Assembly (NCBI GenBank): GCA_000004695.1
Contig: CM000154.2
Location: 3,328,001 to 3,392,000, forward strand
Direction: 5' to 3'
Source of the DNA: Dictyostelium discoideum
Lineage: Eukaryota
DNA length: 64,000 bases
In this document: positions 27,012 through 60,611 of the stretch, piece by piece
Layout: the number at the start of each line of letters is the position of its first letter
Numbering within the stretch: the first letter of the stretch is position 1
Position numbers and translations under genes: made by a program
The notes under the pieces: generated by a model
What the model saw: the letters and a program-made list of their open reading frames with translations, nothing else
Databases searched by the model: none
What the model was told of the DNA's origin: nothing

Positions 27012-30747
<3,736 letters not shown>

Positions 30748-41166: not shown

Positions 41167-41910
41167 ATGGGTGGTAAAAAATTTGGTACCAATTCAAAAG
41201 CAGAAGAAGCTCGTTCAAAGAAAGCAGAAGTTAAAAAGAATGAAAATGAAAAGAAACAAAGAGATAAAGAGGATAAAATGTGGGAAGAAACAGATACAAA
41301 AATTTTAGATAAACAAAAAAAACAAAAAGAAAAAGAGGAAAAAGCAAGAGAAGATGCAAAAAAGAAACAAGAAGCAAAAGAATTATTACAACAAGAAGAT
41401 AAAGAAATTAAAGAAAGATATGGTAAACCATCAGATACTAAAGTAACTCGTTTTGAAATTCAACAAAAGAGAGATAAAGAACAAAAACAAAGAGAAAAAG
41501 AACTTGCTTCAAGACCATCCGATCCAAGAGTTGTTGTAGTTCCAACAACAACAACAACAACAACAACTACAACTACAACTACCACTGGATCTGATGATCA
41601 TGAAGAAGAAGATTTTAACCTTGAAGAGAATATGAATCATATTTTACGTGAACAAAGATTGAAAGATGGTAAAGATGTTATTGATGCTAGAGATATTAAT
41701 GAAGCAATTGGTGCTTTATCAGGTAATGATGGAAAAGAACAACACCCAGAACGTAGAATGAAAGCTGCTTTCAATGCATATGAAGAAGAGAATTTACCAG
41801 TACTTAGAAAAGAAAATCCATCACTTCGTTTAACTCAAGTTAAACAATTGCTTTGGAAAAATTGGTTAAAAGCACCAGAGAATCCTTTCAATCAAGTTGG
41901 TTCTCAATAA
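41167..41910 (+). CDS. CCDC124/Lso2-like protein (ribosome-associated), 247 aa.
   Basis: A Lys/Glu-rich coiled-coil N-half. The C-terminal block HPERRMKAAFNAYEEENLPVLRKENPSLRLTQVKQLLWKNWLKAPENPFNQ matches the conserved CCDC124 C-terminal domain (HPERRMRAAF..F.E..LP.LK.ENP..RLSQLKQLL.K.W..SP.NP.NQ). It has an internal poly-T linker. Confidence 0.85.
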   Translation: MGGKKFGTNSKAEEARSKKAEVKKNENEKKQRDKEDKMWEETDTKILDKQKKQKEKEEKAREDAKKKQEAKELLQQEDKEIKERYGKPSDTKVTRFEIQQKRDKEQKQREKELASRPSDPRVVVVPTTTTTTTTTTTTTTGSDDHEEEDFNLEENMNHILREQRLKDGKDVIDARDINEAIGALSGNDGKEQHPERRMKAAFNAYEEENLPVLRKENPSLRLTQVKQLLWKNWLKAPENPFNQVGSQ

Positions 41911-42228: not shown

Positions 42229-45200
42229 TTATTTAATTTTTATATATTTTAAAATTAAATTATACATTTCATTAAAACCTTGATTTTTAATATCATTAAT
42301 GAGTTCTTGATCAATTATTATACTATTTAATAATACATCTTTATGGTTTTCTAATAAATAATTGGAAATTAATTTACAATTCTTTGCGAATGGATTAATT
42401 TCAAAATTACCGAATAATAAATTACTAATACCTTTAGCATAATTTGAAATAATAAAATTTGTTATATCAATTCTTTCTAAAAGTATTGCCCATTTTAATA
42501 ATTTATCGATTGAAAATTCTTCTAAATCTAATTTCACCAATTCATTAATTACATCTTGAAAAGGAATTTTAAAAATACCACTTTTAAAAAATGATTTTAT
42601 AATTTCAGTTGATTGAAATTTAATTTCATGAGAAATTTTAAAAGAGTCAATATTATCTTTTAATAATGATATTGCCAATTGAGGTTCATTGATTGTTAAT
42701 AAATAACGCACACTTTTTCCATTACAAACTGGTTGAAAATAAATTTTCATTAATTCAATAACCAATAAATTAAATGAAGAATTTTTGATAAAATTAAATG
42801 AATGACCTTTATAAAAAAAGAAATGTTTTCCATAATGTGTCTTTTTTGAGAATATTGCAGATCTTGATAAATCTCTTGATGCTGGATCTTTAAGAAAAAT
42901 ATTTGATAATTTTTTATTCTTTAAATTGTAAAAGTAAAATGTATGATAGTATCCAATTGATAATGTAATGGAATTAATATCACATAATTCAATAATAAAT
43001 TCAATTTGTTGTAATGTAACATTTTTACTTTGAACTAAAAAATCAAATAGAATTTGAATCATTTCAATTGTTGTGAAATTATTAATTTCTCTTTTATCAA
43101 CTTTTTTTAATAATTGTTCAATAATTTCAATAATATCAAAAGAGTTTAAATCATTGGTTTTAATTTCACCAGTTGGAAGATTATAAATTGTAAATTCTTG
43201 ATTAAAAATTATATCTCTATCACTTGACAATGAAAAATAATTAAAAACTGTGAATGTTGTAATTTCATTTAATATATATTTAATTATTTTTAAACGATCA
43301 TTAAAATTAAAAGATTGTTTGAATAGGATTTCACAAATTATAATTGATGATTGGTTTTCAAATAAAGAGAATGCAATCTCTTTAAATGATGGGCAATTTT
43401 CAATTAATTTATCAATATTTGAAAATGAATTGAATAAACCAATAAAAAATGAACTAATACCATTTTCATTAAATAAATTTGTAAAATTAATTTCATTCAA
43501 ATAATTTAAAGTTTCATCTACCTTTTTATACATTTCCTCAGTGCATTTTCCTTGATTATCAAATGTGAAGGTTTTATTATCACCACCAATTTTAGCAAAT
43601 TTAATAATTTTCATTATTTCTTTAATACTTTCTAAATCAAAATTATTTAATAATTTTAAAAGATAATTATTGAATAATTCTTTTGGTGCATTTGGATAAT
43701 TTAATATTGCTTGTTTAACAATATCCACAGAGTTAATTACAAATGATAATGATTTGTAAAAATTTGAATAATTTGGATTATCATTATCATTTGAAGATAA
43801 TTGTGATGGTAAAAATAAATCATCCAATACTTTTAAATGATTAAATTGTGAAACAGAATCAATTTTAAAATTTGATTTTAAACCAATTAAATAATCTGAA
43901 AATTTAAATGATTTGATTGAAAAGAATAATGAGTATTCATCATCATCATCATTACCTGCATTACCATCATTATCTTCCTCTTGTTTAGATTTTAATAAAT
44001 TAATTAATTTTACCATTTGTGAAGGACAATTAAGATCAAAAGAGTATAATAATTTTGAAATTAATTTTAAAGGAAAATCAGGTACACTTTCAATTATTTC
44101 TTTTAATACATTAAATTCGCAAAATTTTAATATTGCAGATATAATGTATAACCAACCATTATATTTCATTGAAAAGTGATTATCATTTTTGAAATAAAGT
44201 TTACTAAATTCTATTACCAAGTTTGGGCTTTCAAGTAAAACTTGTTGGTTTGGGAAAAATACTAAAACTCCATTGAATCTAAAAGATGTTTCAATTAAAT
44301 ACTTTAAACCATTGATTGAAAACATTGAAAATGTATATGATACTACACTTTCACTATCGATTAAATCAAAATCATCATCATATTCACAAAGATATGAAAA
44401 ACTAAAATCTTGATGAGTTAACTCTTGTGTTAATTTTAATTTTAGAAATTTTAATTTCTCTTTTTCACATTTTAAATCTTTTATCATTTCATTAACTATT
44501 TGATCAACTTTTTTTGTATCAACCAATAAATCATTAGATTTGTAGACACATTTATATAAGAATATAAAATCATCTAAACTATAATTATTATAGTTATTTA
44601 CAACAATTGAACTTGGAAAACTCTTTTTAAAATTAATAAAACCATTAAGGAATAGTTTAATTTGTAAATCCCTATGAGCCGAGTCAAGTTTTATTATAGT
44701 TTCCAAAGGGATACTATACATTGTATCACTTATTGAATCCTCTTTTTTTGGATACAGTTCTGGATAATTATTATAAATCACCGATATAAATCCAAAATCT
44801 TCTTCTCCTTTTTCTTTTGAAAGAAATCTATATAATAATTGATTTTTTAATAAATCAATATCACTTTGTTGATTACTTTCTTTTAATGCCAAATATACAA
44901 TTTCAAAAATTTGCATTGAAGTTATATAAAATTCACTATCATATGAATTTATTTGATTAAATTGAATTGGTAATTTCATTCCAGTTTCTTCATCAATATA
45001 ATTAATGAAATATTTTAATGAAATTTCATTTTCACACTCTATTGATTGATTAATCGGATCAATTATTGAATTGATTTCTTCTTTTTTAAATTTATATAAT
45101 AATTTGATTGTATCTAAATCTTCATTACAATATTTAAAAAATTTTGATAATCCTTTTTTATCAATTCTTATATATTGATTACTAATTAATTTATCTTTTA

Positions 45201-45408
45201 ATATTGTCCATAATTTATTTTTTGAAATTAAATTCAATGATATCATATTTGAAAATTTAACTCTATTCCCAACATAATACTTTTTCATATCATCATACTC
45301 TATAACTTGTTCACCCATAACTTTAAATATTAAATTTCTAATTACAACATTTTTAAAAACTTTCCAAAATAATATTTCATTATTATCATTATTATTGTTT
45401 TTGCTCAT
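42229..45408 (-). CDS. Family member 4 (subfamily B), 1059 aa.
   Basis: N-terminus NNEILFWKVFKNVVIRNLIFKVMGEQVIEYDDMKKYYVGNRVKFSN is about 95% identical to the N-terminus of ORF 45542... The blocks NCPSFKEIAF and INYPNAPKELF are shared with it. Confidence 0.8.
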   Translation of the reverse strand: MSKNNNNDNNEILFWKVFKNVVIRNLIFKVMGEQVIEYDDMKKYYVGNRVKFSNMISLNLISKNKLWTILKDKLISNQYIRIDKKGLSKFFKYCNEDLDTIKLLYKFKKEEINSIIDPINQSIECENEISLKYFINYIDEETGMKLPIQFNQINSYDSEFYITSMQIFEIVYLALKESNQQSDIDLLKNQLLYRFLSKEKGEEDFGFISVIYNNYPELYPKKEDSISDTMYSIPLETIIKLDSAHRDLQIKLFLNGFINFKKSFPSSIVVNNYNNYSLDDFIFLYKCVYKSNDLLVDTKKVDQIVNEMIKDLKCEKEKLKFLKLKLTQELTHQDFSFSYLCEYDDDFDLIDSESVVSYTFSMFSINGLKYLIETSFRFNGVLVFFPNQQVLLESPNLVIEFSKLYFKNDNHFSMKYNGWLYIISAILKFCEFNVLKEIIESVPDFPLKLISKLLYSFDLNCPSQMVKLINLLKSKQEEDNDGNAGNDDDDEYSLFFSIKSFKFSDYLIGLKSNFKIDSVSQFNHLKVLDDLFLPSQLSSNDNDNPNYSNFYKSLSFVINSVDIVKQAILNYPNAPKELFNNYLLKLLNNFDLESIKEIMKIIKFAKIGGDNKTFTFDNQGKCTEEMYKKVDETLNYLNEINFTNLFNENGISSFFIGLFNSFSNIDKLIENCPSFKEIAFSLFENQSSIIICEILFKQSFNFNDRLKIIKYILNEITTFTVFNYFSLSSDRDIIFNQEFTIYNLPTGEIKTNDLNSFDIIEIIEQLLKKVDKREINNFTTIEMIQILFDFLVQSKNVTLQQIEFIIELCDINSITLSIGYYHTFYFYNLKNKKLSNIFLKDPASRDLSRSAIFSKKTHYGKHFFFYKGHSFNFIKNSSFNLLVIELMKIYFQPVCNGKSVRYLLTINEPQLAISLLKDNIDSFKISHEIKFQSTEIIKSFFKSGIFKIPFQDVINELVKLDLEEFSIDKLLKWAILLERIDITNFIISNYAKGISNLLFGNFEINPFAKNCKLISNYLLENHKDVLLNSIIIDQELINDIKNQGFNEMYNLILKYIKIK

Positions 45409-45430
45409 TGTTTGTTGAATTATTCTTGTT

Positions 45431-45467
<37 letters not shown>

Positions 45468-45541
45468 AAACCAGAAAAAAAAAAGAAAAAAAAAAAAAAA
45501 AATTCTTTAAAAAAAAAAAAAACTATTTTTTTTGTTTAATT

Positions 45542-48475
45542 TTATTTTATTTTTGTTTCTTTTGTGTCATATAAAGTTAAAATAAGATTCATAATATCAA
45601 GTCTTTTTTTAAGTGTTGCCCTTTCTAAAATTGAATTCTTGTGTAAAAATTTTATATTTTCTAATACATAAATTACATTTGAAATATTTGAAAACCAATG
45701 TGATTTGAACAACAATTTTATAAAATGTGAGGGTACAGAATCTTTGTTTGTTGTATTTTTTAAATATCTTTCCATTGATATTAAAGCTAATTTATCTTCA
45801 TTAATTTTAAATAAATAATCTATATTATTTTTGAAAAAATCACGAGGTTTTGATAAAATTACCAATTTTTTTAATAATTGAGATGTTGATAATTTTTCAA
45901 TTACATCAAGTGGAAATTGTCCAAAATCAAAATTTATACCACAATTATATTTATTAACCATTGAAAAAGAGGTTGTTTTTTTTGGTAAATAAAGTGAAGT
46001 TAAATAATTTGATAATTTAAAATTTTTTATGTTGAAATAATAAATGATATGATAAAATCCAATTATCAATTGTATTTTATTTGATTTACATATTTCCAAG
46101 AATAAATTAATTTGATCAAAATTTATATTTTTACATTTTACTAATTCATTAAATAAAATTTGAAAAACAATAAAGTTTGAAGATTCTTGAATGTTTATTT
46201 TTTTAATTATTTCATTTAAAACTTGAATTATTAAATTTGGATTTTCAAAATTAAAATTTATATTTATTTCACCACTTTTAAATTCAAAAAGATAGTTTGG
46301 TTCAGTTTCATATTTAATGCATAATCTTGAATTTGATGAGAGTTGATTTAAAATGAATAAAATTGATTCATATTGTTTTGATTTAATTAAATTAGTTATA
46401 ACCAATTCTAATGATTCATTTGGAAATGAATTGAAATCAATTAATTTAAAAGATGGACAATTTTCAATTAATTCTTTAAAAGAAAATGAATCGAATAATG
46501 ATTCGAAAAAAATACAAGTTAATTTTGGATTAATTTTAATGGTTGGAAATTGTAATTGATTTAAATTATTTAAAATATTTTCAACTTGAGTAATGTTGGT
46601 TAATTTTTTAAAATTAAAATTTGTATGAAATTGACAAAAAATAGGTGAATTAATATCTTGAATACCAATTATTTCTATAAATTGTTTAATTTTTTCAATA
46701 TCTAAATTATTTAATGAACCAATATATAATTTTTTACATATTACTGCTTTTTCTGCATTTGGGTAATTTATTAAACATCTTTTAATTGCTTCCATTGATT
46801 CTAATGAAAGTGATAAAACTGAATAATAATTATTTATTGCTTTTAATGTTGAAGTTGATATTGATTCTTGATCACTTGAAACATTAATAAAAAATTTTTT
46901 TTCAAAGAATTTTAAATCATCAACTTGTTGTTCTGTGTAAATTTCAAAATAAAATTCTAATGCTTTAAAGTAATTTTCTCTTTTTAAATACATTACACCT
47001 GGAATTCTTTCACTGACTTTTTGAATGATTTTAACAGTTGTTGATGGACATTTCACAGTGAAATCGTTTAATTTTTCAATTATAAATGGTAAATGAGAAT
47101 CTGGGAAAACATCTAATAATTCATTAATGATTTCAAATGGGTATTGATATGAAAAAATTAATTCACTAACTGGTTTCCAACTTGAAAACCCAATGTTTAA
47201 ATGATTATCATTTTCAAAGTAAATCTTAAAAAACTGTACTATTCTACCCTTTATTTCTTCAATTTTTGAAAGATTGCACATTACATAATGGTGTTTAGGA
47301 AATTTAAAAGAATTTTCAATTAAACAATTTAAACCATTGATTGAAAATGATGAAAATGTATATTCTGCAATAGTTGATAAATCTGTAGTTGTTTCCTTAC
47401 TAATTCTATCATCAAATTCATCAAAATAAGCTTTATAAAATATATTTTTATCATATTCTTTTGCAATTTTATATTTAATAAATTTAATTTTTTCAAATTC
47501 TATATTCTCTTTATATTTTAAACCTTCTTTTTCAACCATCTCTTCAATTAAATCATTCACTTGTTTTGTTGAAATTTTTTTATTATTATTATTATAATAA
47601 TGATTTATTTTTAAAAGGAATAAACAATCTTGATATGAAAATTGAGTGTAATTATTCAATATATAATAAATTGGTATTGTGCTTTTAACTTCTATAAATC
47701 CACTTTTAAAACATTTAGTTCTAAATTCATCACTTCCTTTATAGGTTAAAGTGAATAAACCATAACCAAGCTTTTCTTTATAATTTAATTCATTTGGTTT
47801 AATGAAAACATCTAAACAATTATCAAAAATATATGATAATAATTCCCATTCATTTTTAACAATTAATCTATTAAATACTTTAATAATATCAATTTTATTA
47901 TTATTTTTATTATTTTTATTATTATTTAATTTATTTCTTAATTCTTTATATAGTACATCAAGCATGGATATGGTGTTTATATGCTTATAGAATCCATTTT
48001 GAATTGAATCCAATGTTATTGGTAATTTCATTCCAGTTTCTTCATCAATATAATTAATGAAATATTTTAATGCAAGTTCATTTTCATTCTCTATTGATTG
48101 ATTTATTGGGTCAATGATTGAATTGATTTCTTCTTTTTTAAATTTATATAATAATTTAATTGTATCTAAATCTTCATTACAATTTTCAAAGAAACTTGAT
48201 AATCCTTTTTTATCAATTCTTATATATTGATTACTAATTAATTTATCTTTTAATATTGTCCATAATTTATTTTTTGAAATTAAGGCTAATGTCATATTTG
48301 AAAATTTAACTCTATTCCCAACATAATACTTTTTCATATCATCATACTCTATAACTTGTTCACTCATAACTTTAAATATTAAATTTCTAATTACAACATT
48401 TTTAAAAACTTTCCAAAATAATATTTCATTATTATCATTATTATTATCATTATCATTATTATTATTATTATTCAT
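45542..48475 (-). CDS. Family member 5 (subfamily B), 977 aa; tandem duplicate of the gene immediately downstream.
   Basis: Nucleotide stretches 48040-48460 and 44990-45400 are nearly identical. Internal regions have diverged. Confidence 0.8.
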   Translation of the reverse strand: MNNNNNNDNDNNNDNNEILFWKVFKNVVIRNLIFKVMSEQVIEYDDMKKYYVGNRVKFSNMTLALISKNKLWTILKDKLISNQYIRIDKKGLSSFFENCNEDLDTIKLLYKFKKEEINSIIDPINQSIENENELALKYFINYIDEETGMKLPITLDSIQNGFYKHINTISMLDVLYKELRNKLNNNKNNKNNNKIDIIKVFNRLIVKNEWELLSYIFDNCLDVFIKPNELNYKEKLGYGLFTLTYKGSDEFRTKCFKSGFIEVKSTIPIYYILNNYTQFSYQDCLFLLKINHYYNNNNKKISTKQVNDLIEEMVEKEGLKYKENIEFEKIKFIKYKIAKEYDKNIFYKAYFDEFDDRISKETTTDLSTIAEYTFSSFSINGLNCLIENSFKFPKHHYVMCNLSKIEEIKGRIVQFFKIYFENDNHLNIGFSSWKPVSELIFSYQYPFEIINELLDVFPDSHLPFIIEKLNDFTVKCPSTTVKIIQKVSERIPGVMYLKRENYFKALEFYFEIYTEQQVDDLKFFEKKFFINVSSDQESISTSTLKAINNYYSVLSLSLESMEAIKRCLINYPNAEKAVICKKLYIGSLNNLDIEKIKQFIEIIGIQDINSPIFCQFHTNFNFKKLTNITQVENILNNLNQLQFPTIKINPKLTCIFFESLFDSFSFKELIENCPSFKLIDFNSFPNESLELVITNLIKSKQYESILFILNQLSSNSRLCIKYETEPNYLFEFKSGEININFNFENPNLIIQVLNEIIKKINIQESSNFIVFQILFNELVKCKNINFDQINLFLEICKSNKIQLIIGFYHIIYYFNIKNFKLSNYLTSLYLPKKTTSFSMVNKYNCGINFDFGQFPLDVIEKLSTSQLLKKLVILSKPRDFFKNNIDYLFKINEDKLALISMERYLKNTTNKDSVPSHFIKLLFKSHWFSNISNVIYVLENIKFLHKNSILERATLKKRLDIMNLILTLYDTKETKIK

Positions 48476-48766
48476 TGTGAATTTGATTTTATTTTGTTTG
48501 GGAAATAAAAAATAAACCGCAAAACAAAAGAGTTATTTTTTATTTTTTTAAAAAAAAAGAAAAAAGAAAAAATAAAGAAAAAGATATTTTTTTTTGAAAA
48601 TATTATCAAAAAAAAATGAAAAAATAATCAATTTTAGATTTTTTTTTTTTTTTTCAAGATATTATTGTAGTTTTATTTTCAAATAAAATAAAAACAATAA
48701 TTTAATCAAACAAGAATTTAATTTAATTATTTAAAATCAATACACATTTTATTTTATTTATTTATT

Positions 48767-48773
48767 TTTTTTT

Positions 48774-48821
<48 letters not shown>

Positions 48822-48822
48822 A
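48767..48822. repeat. (TTTA)n tetranucleotide repeat of about 13 units, abutting the stop codon of the next gene.
   Basis: Read directly from the sequence. Confidence 0.85.
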
Positions 48823-49249
48823 AGGAAGAGTAGAAAATACATGGGAAAATCAATACAATTGAAATAAATATTAAACTATAGTTAATTGGTGGTAATGATG
48901 ATGGTGATGATGATGAACTAATAATACTATTTGTTGTATTCCTGAAACTACAAGTACATGATGCACTATTATATTCATTACATTTATCACCTGTTAACGT
49001 CAAAATGTCTTGTGGACAACTGGATAGTGAACTTTGTAAAAAACATACACCCGCAACTTTTGTAATTGTTGTATTTTTTGGTGATCCACACCAAATACAA
49101 CATGAACCACTTGTAAAACATGTTTCCATTGTTTCTCCATAGCATTTTGAATCATCATCAATTTCCACTGATGATGATGTTTGTTCTCCATTCGATTTTA
49201 TTATAAATATTAAAAATATAATTAGAATTATAAATTTACTTAATTTCAT
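48818..49249 (-). CDS. Small secreted Cys-rich protein with a Ser-rich stalk and a C-terminal hydrophobic GPI-anchor-type signal, 143 aa. It has ponticulin-like architecture.
   Basis: MKLSKFIILIIFLIFIIKSNG is a signal peptide. There are 13 Cys in about 90 aa. A SSSSPSS stalk precedes the C-terminal INYSLIFISIVLIFPCIFYSSF. The length and layout match the Dictyostelium ponticulin family. The assignment is by architecture, not an alignment. Confidence 0.55.
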
Positions 49250-49418: not shown

Positions 49419-49575
<157 letters not shown>

Positions 49576-49582
49576 CAAAAAT

Positions 49583-50551
<969 letters not shown>

Positions 50552-50931: not shown

Positions 50932-50989
<58 letters not shown>

Positions 50990-51594
50990 TTTATATGTTG
51001 TTTTGAAGCGTGGGTGTGTTACAAATAATTTTTTCAATAAATATTCAATTTAACACTACACTACCACAGTTGAAAAAAAATTCATTTCATATATATAAAA
51101 ACACTATTACCCCACTACCCCAAAACATTTTAATTGAAGCAAAATGTGTTCATATAGAACAAATAAATAGCCTTATTCAATGATAACCTAAATGTATTTC
51201 ATATTTATAAATAATAATGGAAATTTTTTTAATTTACAAAAAATTCAAAAAAAATCATATTTAATAAATAAAAAAATCATTGTTGGGGTTGGAATATACT
51301 ATTTAAATTGTTTTTTTTTTGTTATTTTTTTTTTCTCTACTTTACAAATTTATTTATATATATATTTATTAAATGAATCTTTTTTTTTTTTTAATATATT
51401 AATAAAAAATTGTACAACTAAAAATTAGTAATAATATTGGAAAAAAAAAAAATAATAATTGTAATAATATAATTTTTAAAACTACCAAACAATAATAATA
51501 TTGGGAAAAAAAAAAAACCAAAAAAAAAAAAACAAAAAAGGAAATAAAATCAAACAAAGATTTTTTATTAAATCAATAATTAAAAAAAAAAAAA

Positions 51595-54500
51595 ATGAAA
51601 TTATTATTATTGGCGCTTATTTTAGTGCTCAGTAATATTAATTTAATAAGTGGTAATGGTTTAGTTTGGCCACATCCAAGATTACCATGTAGCCCATATG
51701 ACGAAAGGGGTTGTATAAATACACAAAAATGTAGTAGTACTGATTGTGATTCATTTAAACGTAGAATGTAAATATTAAATTTATTTTTTTATTTTAATTT
51801 TTTATATTTCCTAAAAAAAAAAACAATTTGTTTATTAATTTTTTTAAAAAATAATTATTTTTAGATATTTTGATGTTGCTTATAATACAGCATTTACAAT
51901 TTATCAACATACAATTTTTAAATACTATTCTGCAAATTATTATAAAGTTGAGTTAATAGTTGGAGGTAAAGTTTATTTTATTCATAAATTTGGTCAATTT
52001 AGAGGTGATGATTGTGAATTTGATGAAATTATTCCAGCTTTTTATAAGAAAGTTCAATTTTTAGATTTATCAACACCAATTAAAGCAACAATTCAATTTT
52101 CATTTGATTTTTCATCACATCCAAAACATGCAAACATTTATTATTCCTGTATAGATGTTTGGTTATTCGACTCTGCATATTACAATTATTGCCCAACTAA
52201 TAGTGGTGGTGGAAGTGGTAATAGTGGTGGTAGTTGGTCAAGTGGTGGAAGTGGTAATAGTGGTGGTGGTTGGTCAAGTGGTGGAAGTGGTAATAGTGGT
52301 GGTAGTTGGTCAAGTGGTAATAGTGGTGGTCATTCTACAGGTGATTGCCCAACAAGTAGCGGAGGTTGGACATCTGGTAGTCACTCAAGTGGATCATGGT
52401 CATCAGGTGGTGGTAGTGGTTCATCATCAGGAGGTCAATCAAGTGGATCTTGGTCTTCAGGAGGTGGTTCATCTTCAGGAGGTCATTCAAGTGGATCTTG
52501 GTCTTCAGGAGGTGGTTCATCTGCAGGAGGTGGTTCATCTTCAGGAAGTCATTCAAGTGGATCTTGGTCAAGTGGTGGCTCATCTTCAGGAGGTCAATCA
52601 AGTGGATCTTGGTCTTCAGGAGGTGGTTCATCTTCGGGAGGTCAATCAAGTGGATCTTGGTCTTCAGGAGGTGGTTCATCTTCAGGAAGTCATTCAAGTG
52701 GATCTTGGTCAAGTGGTGGCTCATCTTCAGGAAGTCATTCAAGTGGATCTTGGTCATCAGGTGGTAGCTCATCATCAAGTGGAAACAGCGGATGGATGAC
52801 TGCTTCTGGGGGTAATACTGGTGGAAATACTGGTGGAAATACTGGTGGAAATACCGGTGGCCAATCAAGTGGAAACAGCGGATGGATGACTGCTTCTGGT
52901 GGTAATACTGGTGGTAATACTGGTGGAAATACCGGTGGTCAATCAAGTGGAAACAGCGGATGGATGACTGCTTCTGGTGGTAATACTGGTGGAAATACTG
53001 GTGGAAATACCGGTGGCCAATCAAGTGGAAGCTCTTCATCAGGTGGCAATAGTGGTTGGTTAACATCTTCTGGCAGTAATAGTGGAAGTTCTTCGTCAGG
53101 TAGTAATAGTGGTTGGTTAACATCTTCTGGTAATAGTGTAAGTTCTTCATCAGGTGGTAATAGTGGCTGGTTAACATCTTCTGGTGGTAATAGCGGAGGC
53201 AATAGTGGAAGTTCTTCATCAGGTGGCAATAGTGGTTGGTTAACATCTTCAGGTGGTAACAGTGGTGGTTCCTCATCTTCAGGCAGCAATAGTGGTGCCT
53301 CATCTTCAGGTGACAATACTGGAGGTAATAGCGGTTGGTTGACATCATCTGGTGGTAATACTGGAGGTAATAGTGGTGCTGCAACCGGAGGAAATAGTGG
53401 AGGTAACAGTGGTGCCTCATCTTCAGGAGGTAATAGTGGCGGTGCTTCATCATCTGGTGGCAATACTGGAGGTAATAGCGGTTGGTTGACATCATCTGGT
53501 GGTAATACTGGAGGTAATAGTGGTGCTGCAACCGGAGGAAATAGTGGAGGTAACAGTGGTGCCTCATCTTCAGGAGGTAATAGTGGTTGGTTGACCGGCG
53601 GTGTTACTGGTGGCAATAGTGGAGGTGCTACTGGAGGTAATAGCGGTGGTGCTACTGGAGGTAATAGTGGAGGTGCTACTGGAGGAAATAGCGGTGGTGC
53701 TACTGGAGGCAATAGCGGCGGTGCTTCATCATCTGGTGGCAATAGTGGAGGTGCTACAGGAGGTAATAGCGGTGGTGCTACTGGAGGCAATAGCGGTGGT
53801 GCTACTGGAGGTAATAGCGGTGGTGCTACTGGAGGCAATAGTGGAGGTGCTACAGGTGGTAACAGTGGAGGTGCTACTGGAGGAAATAGCGGCGGTGCTT
53901 CATCATCTGGTGGCAATACTGGAGGTAATAGCGGCGGTGCTACTGGAGGTAATAGCGGCGGTGCTACTGGAGGCAATAGTGGAGGTGCTACAGGTGGTAA
54001 CAGTGGAGGTGCTACTGGAGGAAATAGTGGAGGTAACAGTGGTGCCTCATCTTCAGGAGGTAATAGCGGTTGGTTAACAGGTGGTGCTACTGGTGGTAAT
54101 AGTGGAGGTGCTACTGGAGGAAATAGTGGCGCTGCAACCGGAGGAAATAGTGGTGCTACTGGTGGTAATAGTGGAGGAAATAGTGGCGCTGCAACCGGAG
54201 GAAATATTGGAGGTGCTTCAAGTGGTTCCAGTTCTTCAGGAGGTAATAGCGGTTGGTTAACAGGAGGCGCTACTGGAGGTAATAGTGGCGGTGCTACTGG
54301 AGGTAATAGTGGCGGTGCTACTGGAGGTAATAGTGGCGGTGCTACTGGAGGTAATAGTGGAGGTGCTACTGGAGGTAATAGTGGAGGTGCTACTGGTGGT
54401 AATAGTGGTGCTGCAACTGGAGCAAATAGTGGTGCTGCAACTGGAGCAAATAGTGGCGCTGCAACTGGAGCAAATAGTGGTGCTGCAACTGGTGCAAATA

Positions 54501-55123
54501 GTGGAAACAATGCCGCTGTAACTGGTGCTGCAAATGGAAATAATGGCGCTGCAGCTGGAGCAAATAGTGGTGCCGCAACTGCTGCAAATAGTGGTGCCGC
54601 AACTGCTGCAAATAGTGGTGCCGCAACTGCTGCAAATAGAGGAAACAATGCCGCTGCAACTGGTGCTGCAAATGGAAATAATGGCGCTGCAGCTGGAGCA
54701 AATAGTGGTGCCGCAACTGCTGCAAATAGTGGTGCTGCAAATAGTGGTGCTGCAACTGCTGCAAATAGTGGTGCTGCAGCTGGAGCAAATAGTGGTGCTG
54801 CAACTGCTGCAAATAGTGGCGCTGCAACTGCTGCAAGTGGTGGAAATGGTGCAAGTGGTGCTGCAAACCCTGGTTCAATAGTAACTCCAAATGATCAAAA
54901 TGTTTCTCCATTATCGAACTCTGATGCTGCAGCAACCGCAGCATCAACTACAGGCAGAAACCCAAGAAATCCAACAAGTAGAGCTCCAACGGTCACACCA
55001 ACGCCAACCTCTTCAGCTGAAGAACCAGCTGCTGGTGGCGAAGATTCAAGTGCAATCTCCAAATATAGTATTCAATCATTTGGTATCTTTGTTTTATCAA
55101 TGATAATATATTTAGTAATTTAA
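51595..55123 (+). CDS. Very large (about 1143 aa) secreted, Gly/Ser/Asn/Ala/Thr-repeat cell-surface protein with a C-terminal GPI-type hydrophobic tail, as join(51595..51767, 51865..55123).
   Basis: Exon 1 MKLLLLALILVLSNINLISG is a signal peptide, ending ..KRR+at at a GTAAAT donor at 51768. The intron ends ..TTTTTAG at 51863-51864. Exon 2 starts in phase and encodes a ~110-aa Cys-containing N-domain (IYFDVAYNTAFTIYQ...CIDVWLFDSAYYNYCPT). Repeat zones then follow: SGSWSSGG units, three exact 72-bp units (NSGWMTASGGNTGGNTGGNTGGQSSG), many GGNSGGATGG 30-bp units and an ANSGAATAANSGAAT zone. The tail is PTSSAEEPAAGGEDSSAISKYSIQSFGIFVLSMIIYLVI*. The track ORF 52796.. is only the portion after the first Met in frame. 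Confidence 0.75.
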
Positions 55124-55268: not shown

Positions 55269-57061
55269 TCACCATTTAACTTTATTTAATAAATCTTGAA
55301 CAAATTGATCGCAATCACCTAAATAAACATAATCAAATTCGTGAGGTTGAGCAACCAACTCACGATTAATTAATATTTGAGGTATTTGTTTATCAACTAT
55401 ATCGGGTAATAAAGACACAGGTTGGACTTGTAATGATGAACCCATAACAATTAGTAAATCAATATCTTTTACATCTTTGAGTACACATTGATCGAATCGG
55501 TCAGGTAGATTTTCACCAAAGAAAACAATATCGGGTTTCATGAATGATTGACCATCATTACATTGTTGACACAAGGGTATTTCCATTTTCATGATGGTAT
55601 CACGAATGGTGGTACCATCGACAGTTAATTTACAAGTGATACAAGTTGCAGTTGAGAAACTACCATGACAATTGACCAATTTCTCTCTATCAATACCTGC
55701 AACATGTTCCAATGTATCGATGTTTTGAGTGTAATTTCTAAGTAGTTTACCTTTTTCATCCAAAAGTTTTATAAAGGAATGAGTTGGTGATGGTTTATGA
55801 TTACCAGGGAAGATCTCTTTTGCAAATTCAAAGAAAGGTAAAGGATTTGCACGTAAGTAATGAATATCAAACAATGATTCTGGTCTTGGTAAATTATATT
55901 TCTTTTCAATAGTTTCGTAAACGCCACCTTTTGATCTAAAATCTGGAATACCACATGAAACTGATACACCAGCACCAGTTATAATTACAATGTTTTTACT
56001 CGATTCAAATAATTGACAAACCTTTTCAAATGTTGATAAATCCAATGTTGCTATCTTTTTTCTATAGGGTCTTGCCAATGTATTATACTTTAAATAATTT
56101 AAAAATAAATTTACTGCCACTTTTTTCCTTGTTAAAAATGCCGTTATAATTTCCCATGCATCATCATCTTTCTCTAATTCCAATTTAAATCCAATATCTT
56201 TGGTAAACTCAATTGGATCAATCCCCAATGATTTCTTTTCTTGAATATGTTTATATATAAAACTACGTGCAACCAATTCAATATTTTCTTCTTCTTCTTC
56301 TCCTTCTTCTTCTTTTGAATTTCCAACATTATTTCCAATTCTTTGAATTTCATCATCAACTTCATCTTTATTATTATTTAAAATATCCAATAATATTGTT
56401 TCATTTATTTGTGTTTTTGTTGTTGTTGTTGTTGTTGTTGATGTTGATGTTGTTGTGGTTGATGAAGTGTTTGTTATTGAAGTGCTGGTTTCTGTATTTA
56501 CTAATTTTTTTTGAATTTTCTTAATTTCATTAATATTATCTAAATGATCTTCATCATCTAATAATTCATCTTCATTTTCATACCCATACTCATATTCACT
56601 ACTTTCATCATCTTCATAGTCATCACTTATTTGTTCTTCATCGGAATATCCTTCACCAACAAATTCATACTTTCTTCCTTTTTTATCCAATTTATTAATT
56701 AATTTAGTATCAATTTCAACATCTAAATCTTCATCTTCATCTACTTCTTGTAATTGTTCTAAACTATTTATAGATTTTCTAAAAATAAAAAAAATAAAAA
56801 AAAGTGGAAATAAAAAAAAATAAAAAAAAAAGGTTAGATTATTTTTTTTATTTTTTTATTTTTTTATTTTTTTTATTTTTTCATTTTCACTTTTTTTTTT
56901 TTTATTTTATTTTTTTTTTTTTTCACGAGGGATGATTTTTACAATTTTTTTAAGGGTGTATTATCAGAAGGGATTTCTTTATTTATTTTATTATTATTAT
57001 TTTTATTTTGATTATTTTGAATTTCGTTTAGTTCATTATTTTCTAAAGATCTCTTATTCAT
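55269..57061 (-). CDS. Sir2-family NAD-dependent protein deacetylase (class I, SIRT1-like), about 542 aa, as complement(join(55269..56778, 56943..57061)).
   Basis: The catalytic core has GAGVSVSCGIPDFRS, the NAD-binding motif. It also has the QNIDTLE and HGSF motifs and Zn-binding CxxC...CxxC (CITCKL / CQQCNDG). The track 'M' at 56690 is a TTG. Upstream exon 1 MNKRSLENNELNEIQNNQNKNNNNKINKEIPSDNTPLKK+tt ends at a GTAAAA donor at 56942. A 164-nt intron ends ..ATTTTTAG at 56779-56780. The junction gives L, then KSINSLEQLQEVDEDED... Confidence 0.85.

Positions 57062-57551: not shown

Positions 57552-60611
<3,060 letters not shown>

Follow-up and report, generated by a model that had tools for sequence, protein, structure and literature searches.

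In paired-receptor-style systems of animals such as SIGLEC11/SIGLEC16 and RHD/RHCE, 5′ gene conversion keeps the partner-binding N-termini of the two genes alike while their remainders differ. Two further reports describe interlocus conversion that produces mosaic concerted evolution in the tandem HMA4 copies of Arabidopsis halleri (bioRxiv 10.1101/2025.10.29.685298) and mosaic or partial concerted evolution in Caenorhabditis paralogues (PMC3966223). Here we analyzed two neighboring genes, A and B, in a 64,000-nucleotide (nt) stretch of Dictyostelium discoideum AX4 DNA (contig CM000154.2 of assembly GCA_000004695.1, positions 3,328,001 to 3,392,000 of the forward strand; hereafter the window, whose own numbering is used throughout). 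Our results make it very likely that A and B are old tandem duplicates in which interlocus (ectopic) gene conversion has repeatedly homogenized an N-terminal module of about 140 codons. The process is an already known one, domain-restricted concerted evolution by interlocus gene conversion. The two genes are adjacent and arranged head-to-tail, both on the minus strand:

42229–45408, minus strand: gene A (DDB_G0289895, UniProt Q54GW2), 1059 amino acids (aa), an uninterrupted single open reading frame (ORF), the downstream member of the tandem
45542–48475, minus strand: gene B (DDB_G0289897, UniProt Q54GW1), 977 aa, an uninterrupted single ORF, the upstream member
45409–45541, minus strand: spacer of 133 base pairs (bp) made of A/T homopolymers, from the stop codon of B to the start codon of A

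The product of gene A matched the AX4 protein at 100% and has orthologues in seven other genomes, and that of gene B was an exact match to the AX4 protein, with orthologues in six other genomes and none in D. firmibasis. The two proteins are paralogous, with about 36–37% aa identity overall (E about 1e-120 to 1e-140). The window has a G+C content of about 20% and contains poly(A)/poly(T) spacers and (AAT)n runs; a lenient blastn dot-plot was swamped by AT-rich low-complexity matches, and a protein-guided codon alignment was used instead. The near-identical portions of the two genes were delimited as follows:

44965–45396, minus strand: homogenized tract of gene A, consisting of module codons E11–I148 (44965–45378) and a few upstream Asn/Asp codons
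48017–48445, minus strand: homogenized tract of gene B, consisting of module codons E17–I153 (48017–48427) and a few upstream Asn/Asp codons

A repeat search aligned 45240–45396 with 48289–48445 at 99% identity and 44951–45231 with 48003–48283 at 93%. In the codon alignment, the first ~150 codons of A and B were 90–97% identical at the nt level, compared with 40–69% (13–57% at the aa level) for the remainder. Over the module itself, which spans 139 codons of this alignment (EILFW...KLPI), 21 of 411 nt differed (~95% identity) against 1117 of 2373 in the body (Fisher p = 1e-70). Codons for the same amino acid were also the same codon in 93% of cases in the module and in 70% in the body (p = 2e-7). 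An earlier note on this DNA had reported nearly identical 5′ ends joined to diverged bodies, and both halves of that description are borne out; divergence along the pair is strongly non-uniform, with a sharp step. The extent of the block had to be revised, as it covers 140–145 codons (~430 nt) rather than the ~110 codons given in the note, and it lies wholly within coding sequence rather than including part of the 5′ flank. The sequences upstream of the two ATGs (45409–45541 and 48476–48700) showed only low-complexity A/T resemblance and no alignment, the spacer upstream of A shares no homology with the region 5′ of B (48476–48817), and the poly-Asn leader differs in length by six codons between the two genes.

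For comparison, orthologues were taken from another D. discoideum strain, two D. cf. discoideum, two D. citrinum isolates, D. firmibasis, and D. dimigraforme; 15 coding sequences were extracted and codon-aligned, with a body of 779 well-aligned codons. Seven genomes carry both copies, namely D. discoideum (2), D. cf. discoideum (2), D. citrinum (2), and D. dimigraforme, and in all seven the gene order is a 142-aa gene, B, A, and a Ccdc124 homologue. D. firmibasis has a single A-type gene, placed only 328 bp after its 140-aa gene (locus L006, 7250–11174), a slot that leaves no room for B. The spacer between B and A measures 2.1 kilobases (kb) in D. dimigraforme (locus L007, 10943–13068), where it holds an extra called gene of 107 aa, and 123–607 bp in all but one of the six remaining genomes with both copies.

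Gene conversion, as proposed in the earlier note, was supported by phylogeny, since the module groups by species and the body by orthologue across the seven two-copy genomes. In neighbor-joining (NJ) trees with 500 bootstraps, the body gave an all-B clade in 500/500 replicates, with congruent species order within A and within B, whereas the same clade was recovered from the module in 0/500. The module tree united A with B in the D. discoideum complex (500/500) and in D. dimigraforme (499/500). Synonymous divergence (dS) pointed the same way. Between A and B of one genome, module dS was 0.140 in AX4, 0.123 in FIR, 0.134 in FIY, 0.078 in FIZ, and 0.211 in D. dimigraforme, compared with 0.30–0.60 between module orthologues of different species (0.30–0.47 for discoideum versus citrinum and 0.46–0.49 for discoideum versus dimigraforme). 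Between the bodies of A and B, dS was saturated at 0.75–1.2 and nonsynonymous divergence (dN) was about 0.70. Informative sites in quartets, given as sites grouping by species to sites grouping by paralogue, were distributed as follows:

AX4 and D. dimigraforme: module 29:2, body 24:422
AX4 and D. citrinum: module 19:2, body 9:588
D. citrinum and D. dimigraforme: module 18:4, body 33:462
FIR and FIY: module 6:12, body 2:900

Sites fixed for one state in all A and another in all B sequences numbered 239 of 2337 in the body and 1 of 417 in the module, the latter in the last module codon (A 44965 / B 48017). On its 3′ side the module ends as follows:

44955–44967, minus strand: 3′ limit of the converted tract in A, following ...MKLPI; in B it corresponds to 48007–48019

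Identity between A and B steps sharply at A ~44965 / B ~48017, and directly 3′ of the module it is ~53–55% at the nt and 30% at the aa level. In 7/7 two-copy genomes the step falls in one shared window of 15 codons (columns 150–164 of the alignment). Fixed differences separating every A from every B sequence begin at columns 154.3, 157, 158, and 161, and 3′ of the boundary the A-type and B-type sequences are differently fixed in every species. As a separate observation, gene B carries a poly-Asn (AAT-repeat) tract about 30 codons 3′ of the boundary, which is short in AX4 (~47880–47950), runs to ~40–75 residues in D. citrinum, and numbers ~30 in one of the D. cf. discoideum isolates; there is no such tract in gene A.

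We then considered when the exchanges took place. In the D. discoideum complex, 58 module sites are variable, and 11 of these are fixed between A and B; they comprise the boundary site in the last module codon and three small islands, of which the first two separate the paralogues throughout the complex and the third in most of it:

45232–45243, minus strand: island 1, ISLN versus T-LA with a one-codon indel, columns 61–64
45130–45144, minus strand: island 2, SKFFKY versus SSFFEN, columns 94–98
45019–45024, minus strand: island 3, IS versus LA, columns 134–135

The 11 fixed differences recur across the four genomes of the complex, and comparison with the outgroups indicates that the island differences arose after the last full homogenization. 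At seven other module sites, A equals B within FIZ and also within the other strains, but FIZ has a different state from them; derived states occur on each side. Eight module polymorphisms are common to both paralogues among AX4, FIR, and FIY; at columns 120–130, for example, A equals B in FIR and A equals B in FIY, yet A differs from B in AX4. These polymorphisms shared across paralogues, together with the FIR/FIY quartet, show that exchange continued after the strains diverged, in the form of short mosaic tracts. On a longer scale, the sequences indicate that the module was homogenized independently on the stem of D. discoideum and in the lineage leading to D. dimigraforme; weaker evidence, such as a shared derived LLYQLK, suggests that this may also be true of the D. 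citrinum lineage. The module dS of 0.14 in AX4 is similar to body dS among members of the complex (0.07–0.23), so the last near-complete homogenization is about as old as the species complex and not very recent.

The duplication itself predates the split of discoideum, citrinum, and dimigraforme. With two distant, non-syntenic family members as outgroup, the D. firmibasis gene grouped with A in 500/500 replicates, which suggests an even earlier duplication followed by loss of B in D. firmibasis. In this rooting the outgroup distances are saturated (~2.1–2.5), and B may have been drawn to the outgroup by long-branch attraction. The D. firmibasis arrangement is compatible with deletion by recombination between the direct module copies and fits an ancestral single copy equally well, and the flanks cannot separate the two, as both predict the same flanks.

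Several other explanations of the near-identical block were weighed. The head-to-tail arrangement, the spacer of just 133 bp, and the ~430 near-identical nt are what a young tandem pair would show if its 5′ identity were a residue and the rest had diverged very fast, and the earlier note had indeed spoken of a recent tandem duplication. Both copies are syntenic in D. citrinum and D. dimigraforme, however, and in place of low, uniform divergence we found saturated dS and a dN of 0.70 in the body and flanks that cannot be aligned; the orthologue clades of the bodies (500/500) and, with the long-branch caveat above, the position of the D. firmibasis copy also argue for an older event, and a recent origin is extremely unlikely. 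We regard as no less improbable the alternative raised in the note, a very recent partial duplication or domain shuffling in which the 5′ module was pasted onto a pre-existing unrelated or distantly related neighbor. Such an event would explain the sharp edge of the identical block, but the bodies are homologous over their whole length (36–37% aa identity), the junction between module and body is the same in all seven two-copy genomes, and the flanks of the block were not duplicated.

Purifying selection alone, acting on a very conserved domain under extreme A/T codon bias and with no exchange of DNA, is a very unlikely explanation. It is in keeping with a module protein that is strongly conserved in all species and both paralogues, with a module dN below that of the body, and with the 70% of same-amino-acid codons that are identical even in the diverged body. 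It cannot, however, bring paralogues within a genome closer than orthologues at synonymous sites, as we observed (dS 0.08–0.21 against 0.38–0.60), nor can it yield grouping by species, and A and B share lineage-specific derived states at many sites. The synonymous sites of the module are not specially constrained either, whether by codon bias or by an embedded RNA or DNA element, because orthologues would show such constraint too, and do not: among codons for the same amino acid, the proportion identical between orthologues was 0.83–0.85 in the module and 0.78–0.85 in the body (p = 0.19–0.77), orthologue dS was similar for the two, and G+C at third codon positions (GC3) did not differ clearly between them. 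As to an assembly artefact, polishing can homogenize repeats, and two copies of the module might have been collapsed or cross-polished, although nothing specific points to this here. The same pattern is present in eight independent assemblies, including the Sanger-era AX4, the 11 fixed differences between A and B are reproduced in four genomes of the D. discoideum complex, and a 430-bp repeat at 3-kb spacing is easily resolved, which leaves this explanation a vanishingly small probability.

The mechanism we propose for repeated gene conversion is non-reciprocal transfer between the two direct copies of ~430 bp, which lie ~3.05 kb apart and are the one part of the two genes where identity has stayed high. 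Homologous-recombination repair requires a minimal length of near-perfect homology, and mismatches stop the extension of heteroduplex. Stronger purifying selection on the module than on the body would have slowed module divergence (dN/dS between discoideum and dimigraforme orthologues is ~0.2 for the module and 0.4–0.6 for the body), so that the module kept enough nt identity to serve as a substrate for homologous repair, and the body and flanks lost theirs. The outcome would be a self-perpetuating island of homology, in which the module stayed homogenized while the bodies (~830–910 codons) diverged freely. Heteroduplex would be blocked on the 3′ side past KLPI, where identity falls to ~55%, and on the 5′ side by the length-variable AAT/poly-Asn tract and the unrelated promoter.

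Some observations weigh against this account. We infer conversion from seven or eight genomes, and no event was directly observed. No signature of GC-biased conversion was seen, as GC3 is about the same in module and body. In D. citrinum, A and B were united in only 276/500 module trees and their module dS is 0.36–0.46, so that support for lineage-specific conversion is weak there. The conserved sharp boundary could also reflect selection against longer tracts and not a purely mechanical limit. A related reading, which we consider unlikely, is that homogenization is itself selected, in that both fast-evolving solenoids (body dN/dS 0.4–0.6) must dock via an identical ankyrin-like module onto a shared, evolving partner. 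Were this so, conversion would copy an interface change to both paralogues at once, forming a "paired adaptor" system in a social amoeba, and it would account for the codon-exact edge maintained over several speciations and for the confinement of new A/B differences to three tiny islands.

We further examined the proteins. Scanning A and B against Pfam returned no family at E ≤ 1, and neither protein matched an ankyrin profile (Pfam clan Ank) above the curated threshold. A profile search of 1.84 billion representative proteins identified 34 cluster representatives, most of which match only profile positions ~5–140; those that were looked up are all dictyostelid. A k-mer-prefiltered search with the module profile returned two fragments only. 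A and B carry the module of a dictyostelid-specific family of ~1000-aa proteins that combines an ELFWKVFxN...GNRxKF...LKDKL motif with ankyrin-like repeats. Other dictyostelid members share only 25–43% identity with A and B, without signs of exchange with either, and some relatives have marginal Pfam ANK matches just after the module, near or below the cut-offs. The full-length AlphaFold model is an all-alpha solenoid with a predicted local distance difference test (pLDDT) score of 64, which matched only generic importin/HEAT/ARM alpha-solenoids at a template modelling (TM) score of about 0.15. Its residues 1–161, which correspond to the converted module, are modelled at low confidence and behave separately from the rest. 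When the module was modelled on its own, with a more diverse set of homologues, it reached a pLDDT of 76 (~90 at residues 60–140); the model shows a helical hairpin and then helix pairs that may make up about three weakly ankyrin-like repeats. A Foldseek search of this model against the PDB gave no significant match. A and B are predicted to be intracellular alpha-solenoids that probably present one N-terminal interaction module on different bodies. With low confidence, we suggest that this is a protein–protein interaction module common to two different scaffolds.

Two labels for these proteins were set aside. The UniProt/UniRef name "Ubiquinone biosynthesis protein", given to both genes, looks like a propagated automatic label, as there is no Pfam match, no homology to a known Coq/Ubi family was seen, and the structural matches are to generic alpha-solenoids only. 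An F-box-like reading of the N-terminal helix LFWKVFKN was dropped as Pfam gave no F-box match.

The window contains a third member of the family, which takes no part in the homogenization of A and B:

30481–30726, minus strand: N-terminal module of the third family member (ORF 29044–30747), ~41% identical in aa sequence to the modules of A and B

The gene to which this module belongs (27012–30747, minus strand) consists of two ORFs of 567 and 682 aa in different frames, which overlap at ~29044–29060, and contains a long poly-Asn run; a short intron or a frameshift could explain the split, or the gene may be a pseudogene. Proteins from D. purpureum and D. firmibasis (P0013/P0014) were considered as orthologues of this third paralogue and rejected, as tblastn and their loci place them in a separate, non-syntenic subfamily. 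They are ~25% identical to A and B and were used solely as a distant outgroup. An ORF of 1019 aa at 57552–60611 (minus strand) begins with LYKFVFNNLYISTIIFNYV..., which loosely resembles the module motif, and has a sub-threshold Pfam ankyrin match at residues 219–243. BLASTP of its product against gene A was not significant; the ORF possibly belongs to the dictyostelid module family as a very remote member.

Around the pair lie a Ccdc124/Oxs1 homologue (41167–41910, plus strand), a gene for a small Cys-rich protein of 143 aa with a signal-peptide-like start and a hydrophobic C-terminal end (48818–49249, minus strand; no Pfam match), and a Sir2-family sirtuin (55269–56690, minus strand). The order of these three neighbors is kept in all related genomes fetched. 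The intergenic sequence at 49419–49575 and 50935–50990 holds a perfect (ATT)n microsatellite of ~50 units and a poly(T) run of ~50 nt, and a second (ATT)n run lies inside a 226-aa ORF (49871–50551), where it encodes poly-Asn. A GC-rich island at 51454–55123 (plus strand) has a G+C content of 40–47% against the background of ~20% and encodes a very long low-complexity repeat protein rich in Gly, Ser, Asn, Thr, and Ala. Within it, a 775-aa ORF (52796–55123) is built of GGNSGGAT-type units in tandem arrays of 24, 48, and 72 nt, ends in a hydrophobic tail, and gave no Pfam match; in related genomes this position is annotated as a gene of 990–1190 aa.

These results have practical consequences. Dating the duplication by its 5′ end would mislead badly, given a module dS of 0.14 beside a saturated body, and orthology calls made from the N-terminus would group A and B by species. 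The results also mark the N-terminal ~140 residues as a functionally constrained, probably partner-binding unit of an uncharacterized dictyostelid family. With direct repeats of 430 bp lying 3 kb apart in a haploid, transformable host, the pair offers a tractable substrate for measuring the rates and tract limits of ectopic conversion.

Our literature search found no report on A and B or on conversion between tandem paralogues of Dictyostelium. That interlocus conversion can make tandem paralogues evolve in concert, partially or as mosaics, is well documented; the A/B pair is a new and unusually clean instance of this and does not reveal a new kind of mechanism. Like SIGLEC11/SIGLEC16 and RHD/RHCE, A and B are neighboring paralogues that probably bear the same N-terminal interface on different bodies. 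They differ in that they are predicted to be intracellular alpha-solenoids and not membrane receptors, that the partner of the module is putative, and that the 5′ flank, often included in conversions of that type, is not part of the tract. With the HMA4 and Caenorhabditis paralogues, the A/B pair has in common a tandem arrangement, one tract that is closer within a genome than between orthologues, flanking parts that keep their orthology, and polymorphisms shared between paralogues. It stands apart in a tract that is limited to a single N-terminal module with a codon-exact edge across at least four species-level lineages, in the near saturation of the remaining gene, and in its host, a haploid and extremely AT-rich amoeba.

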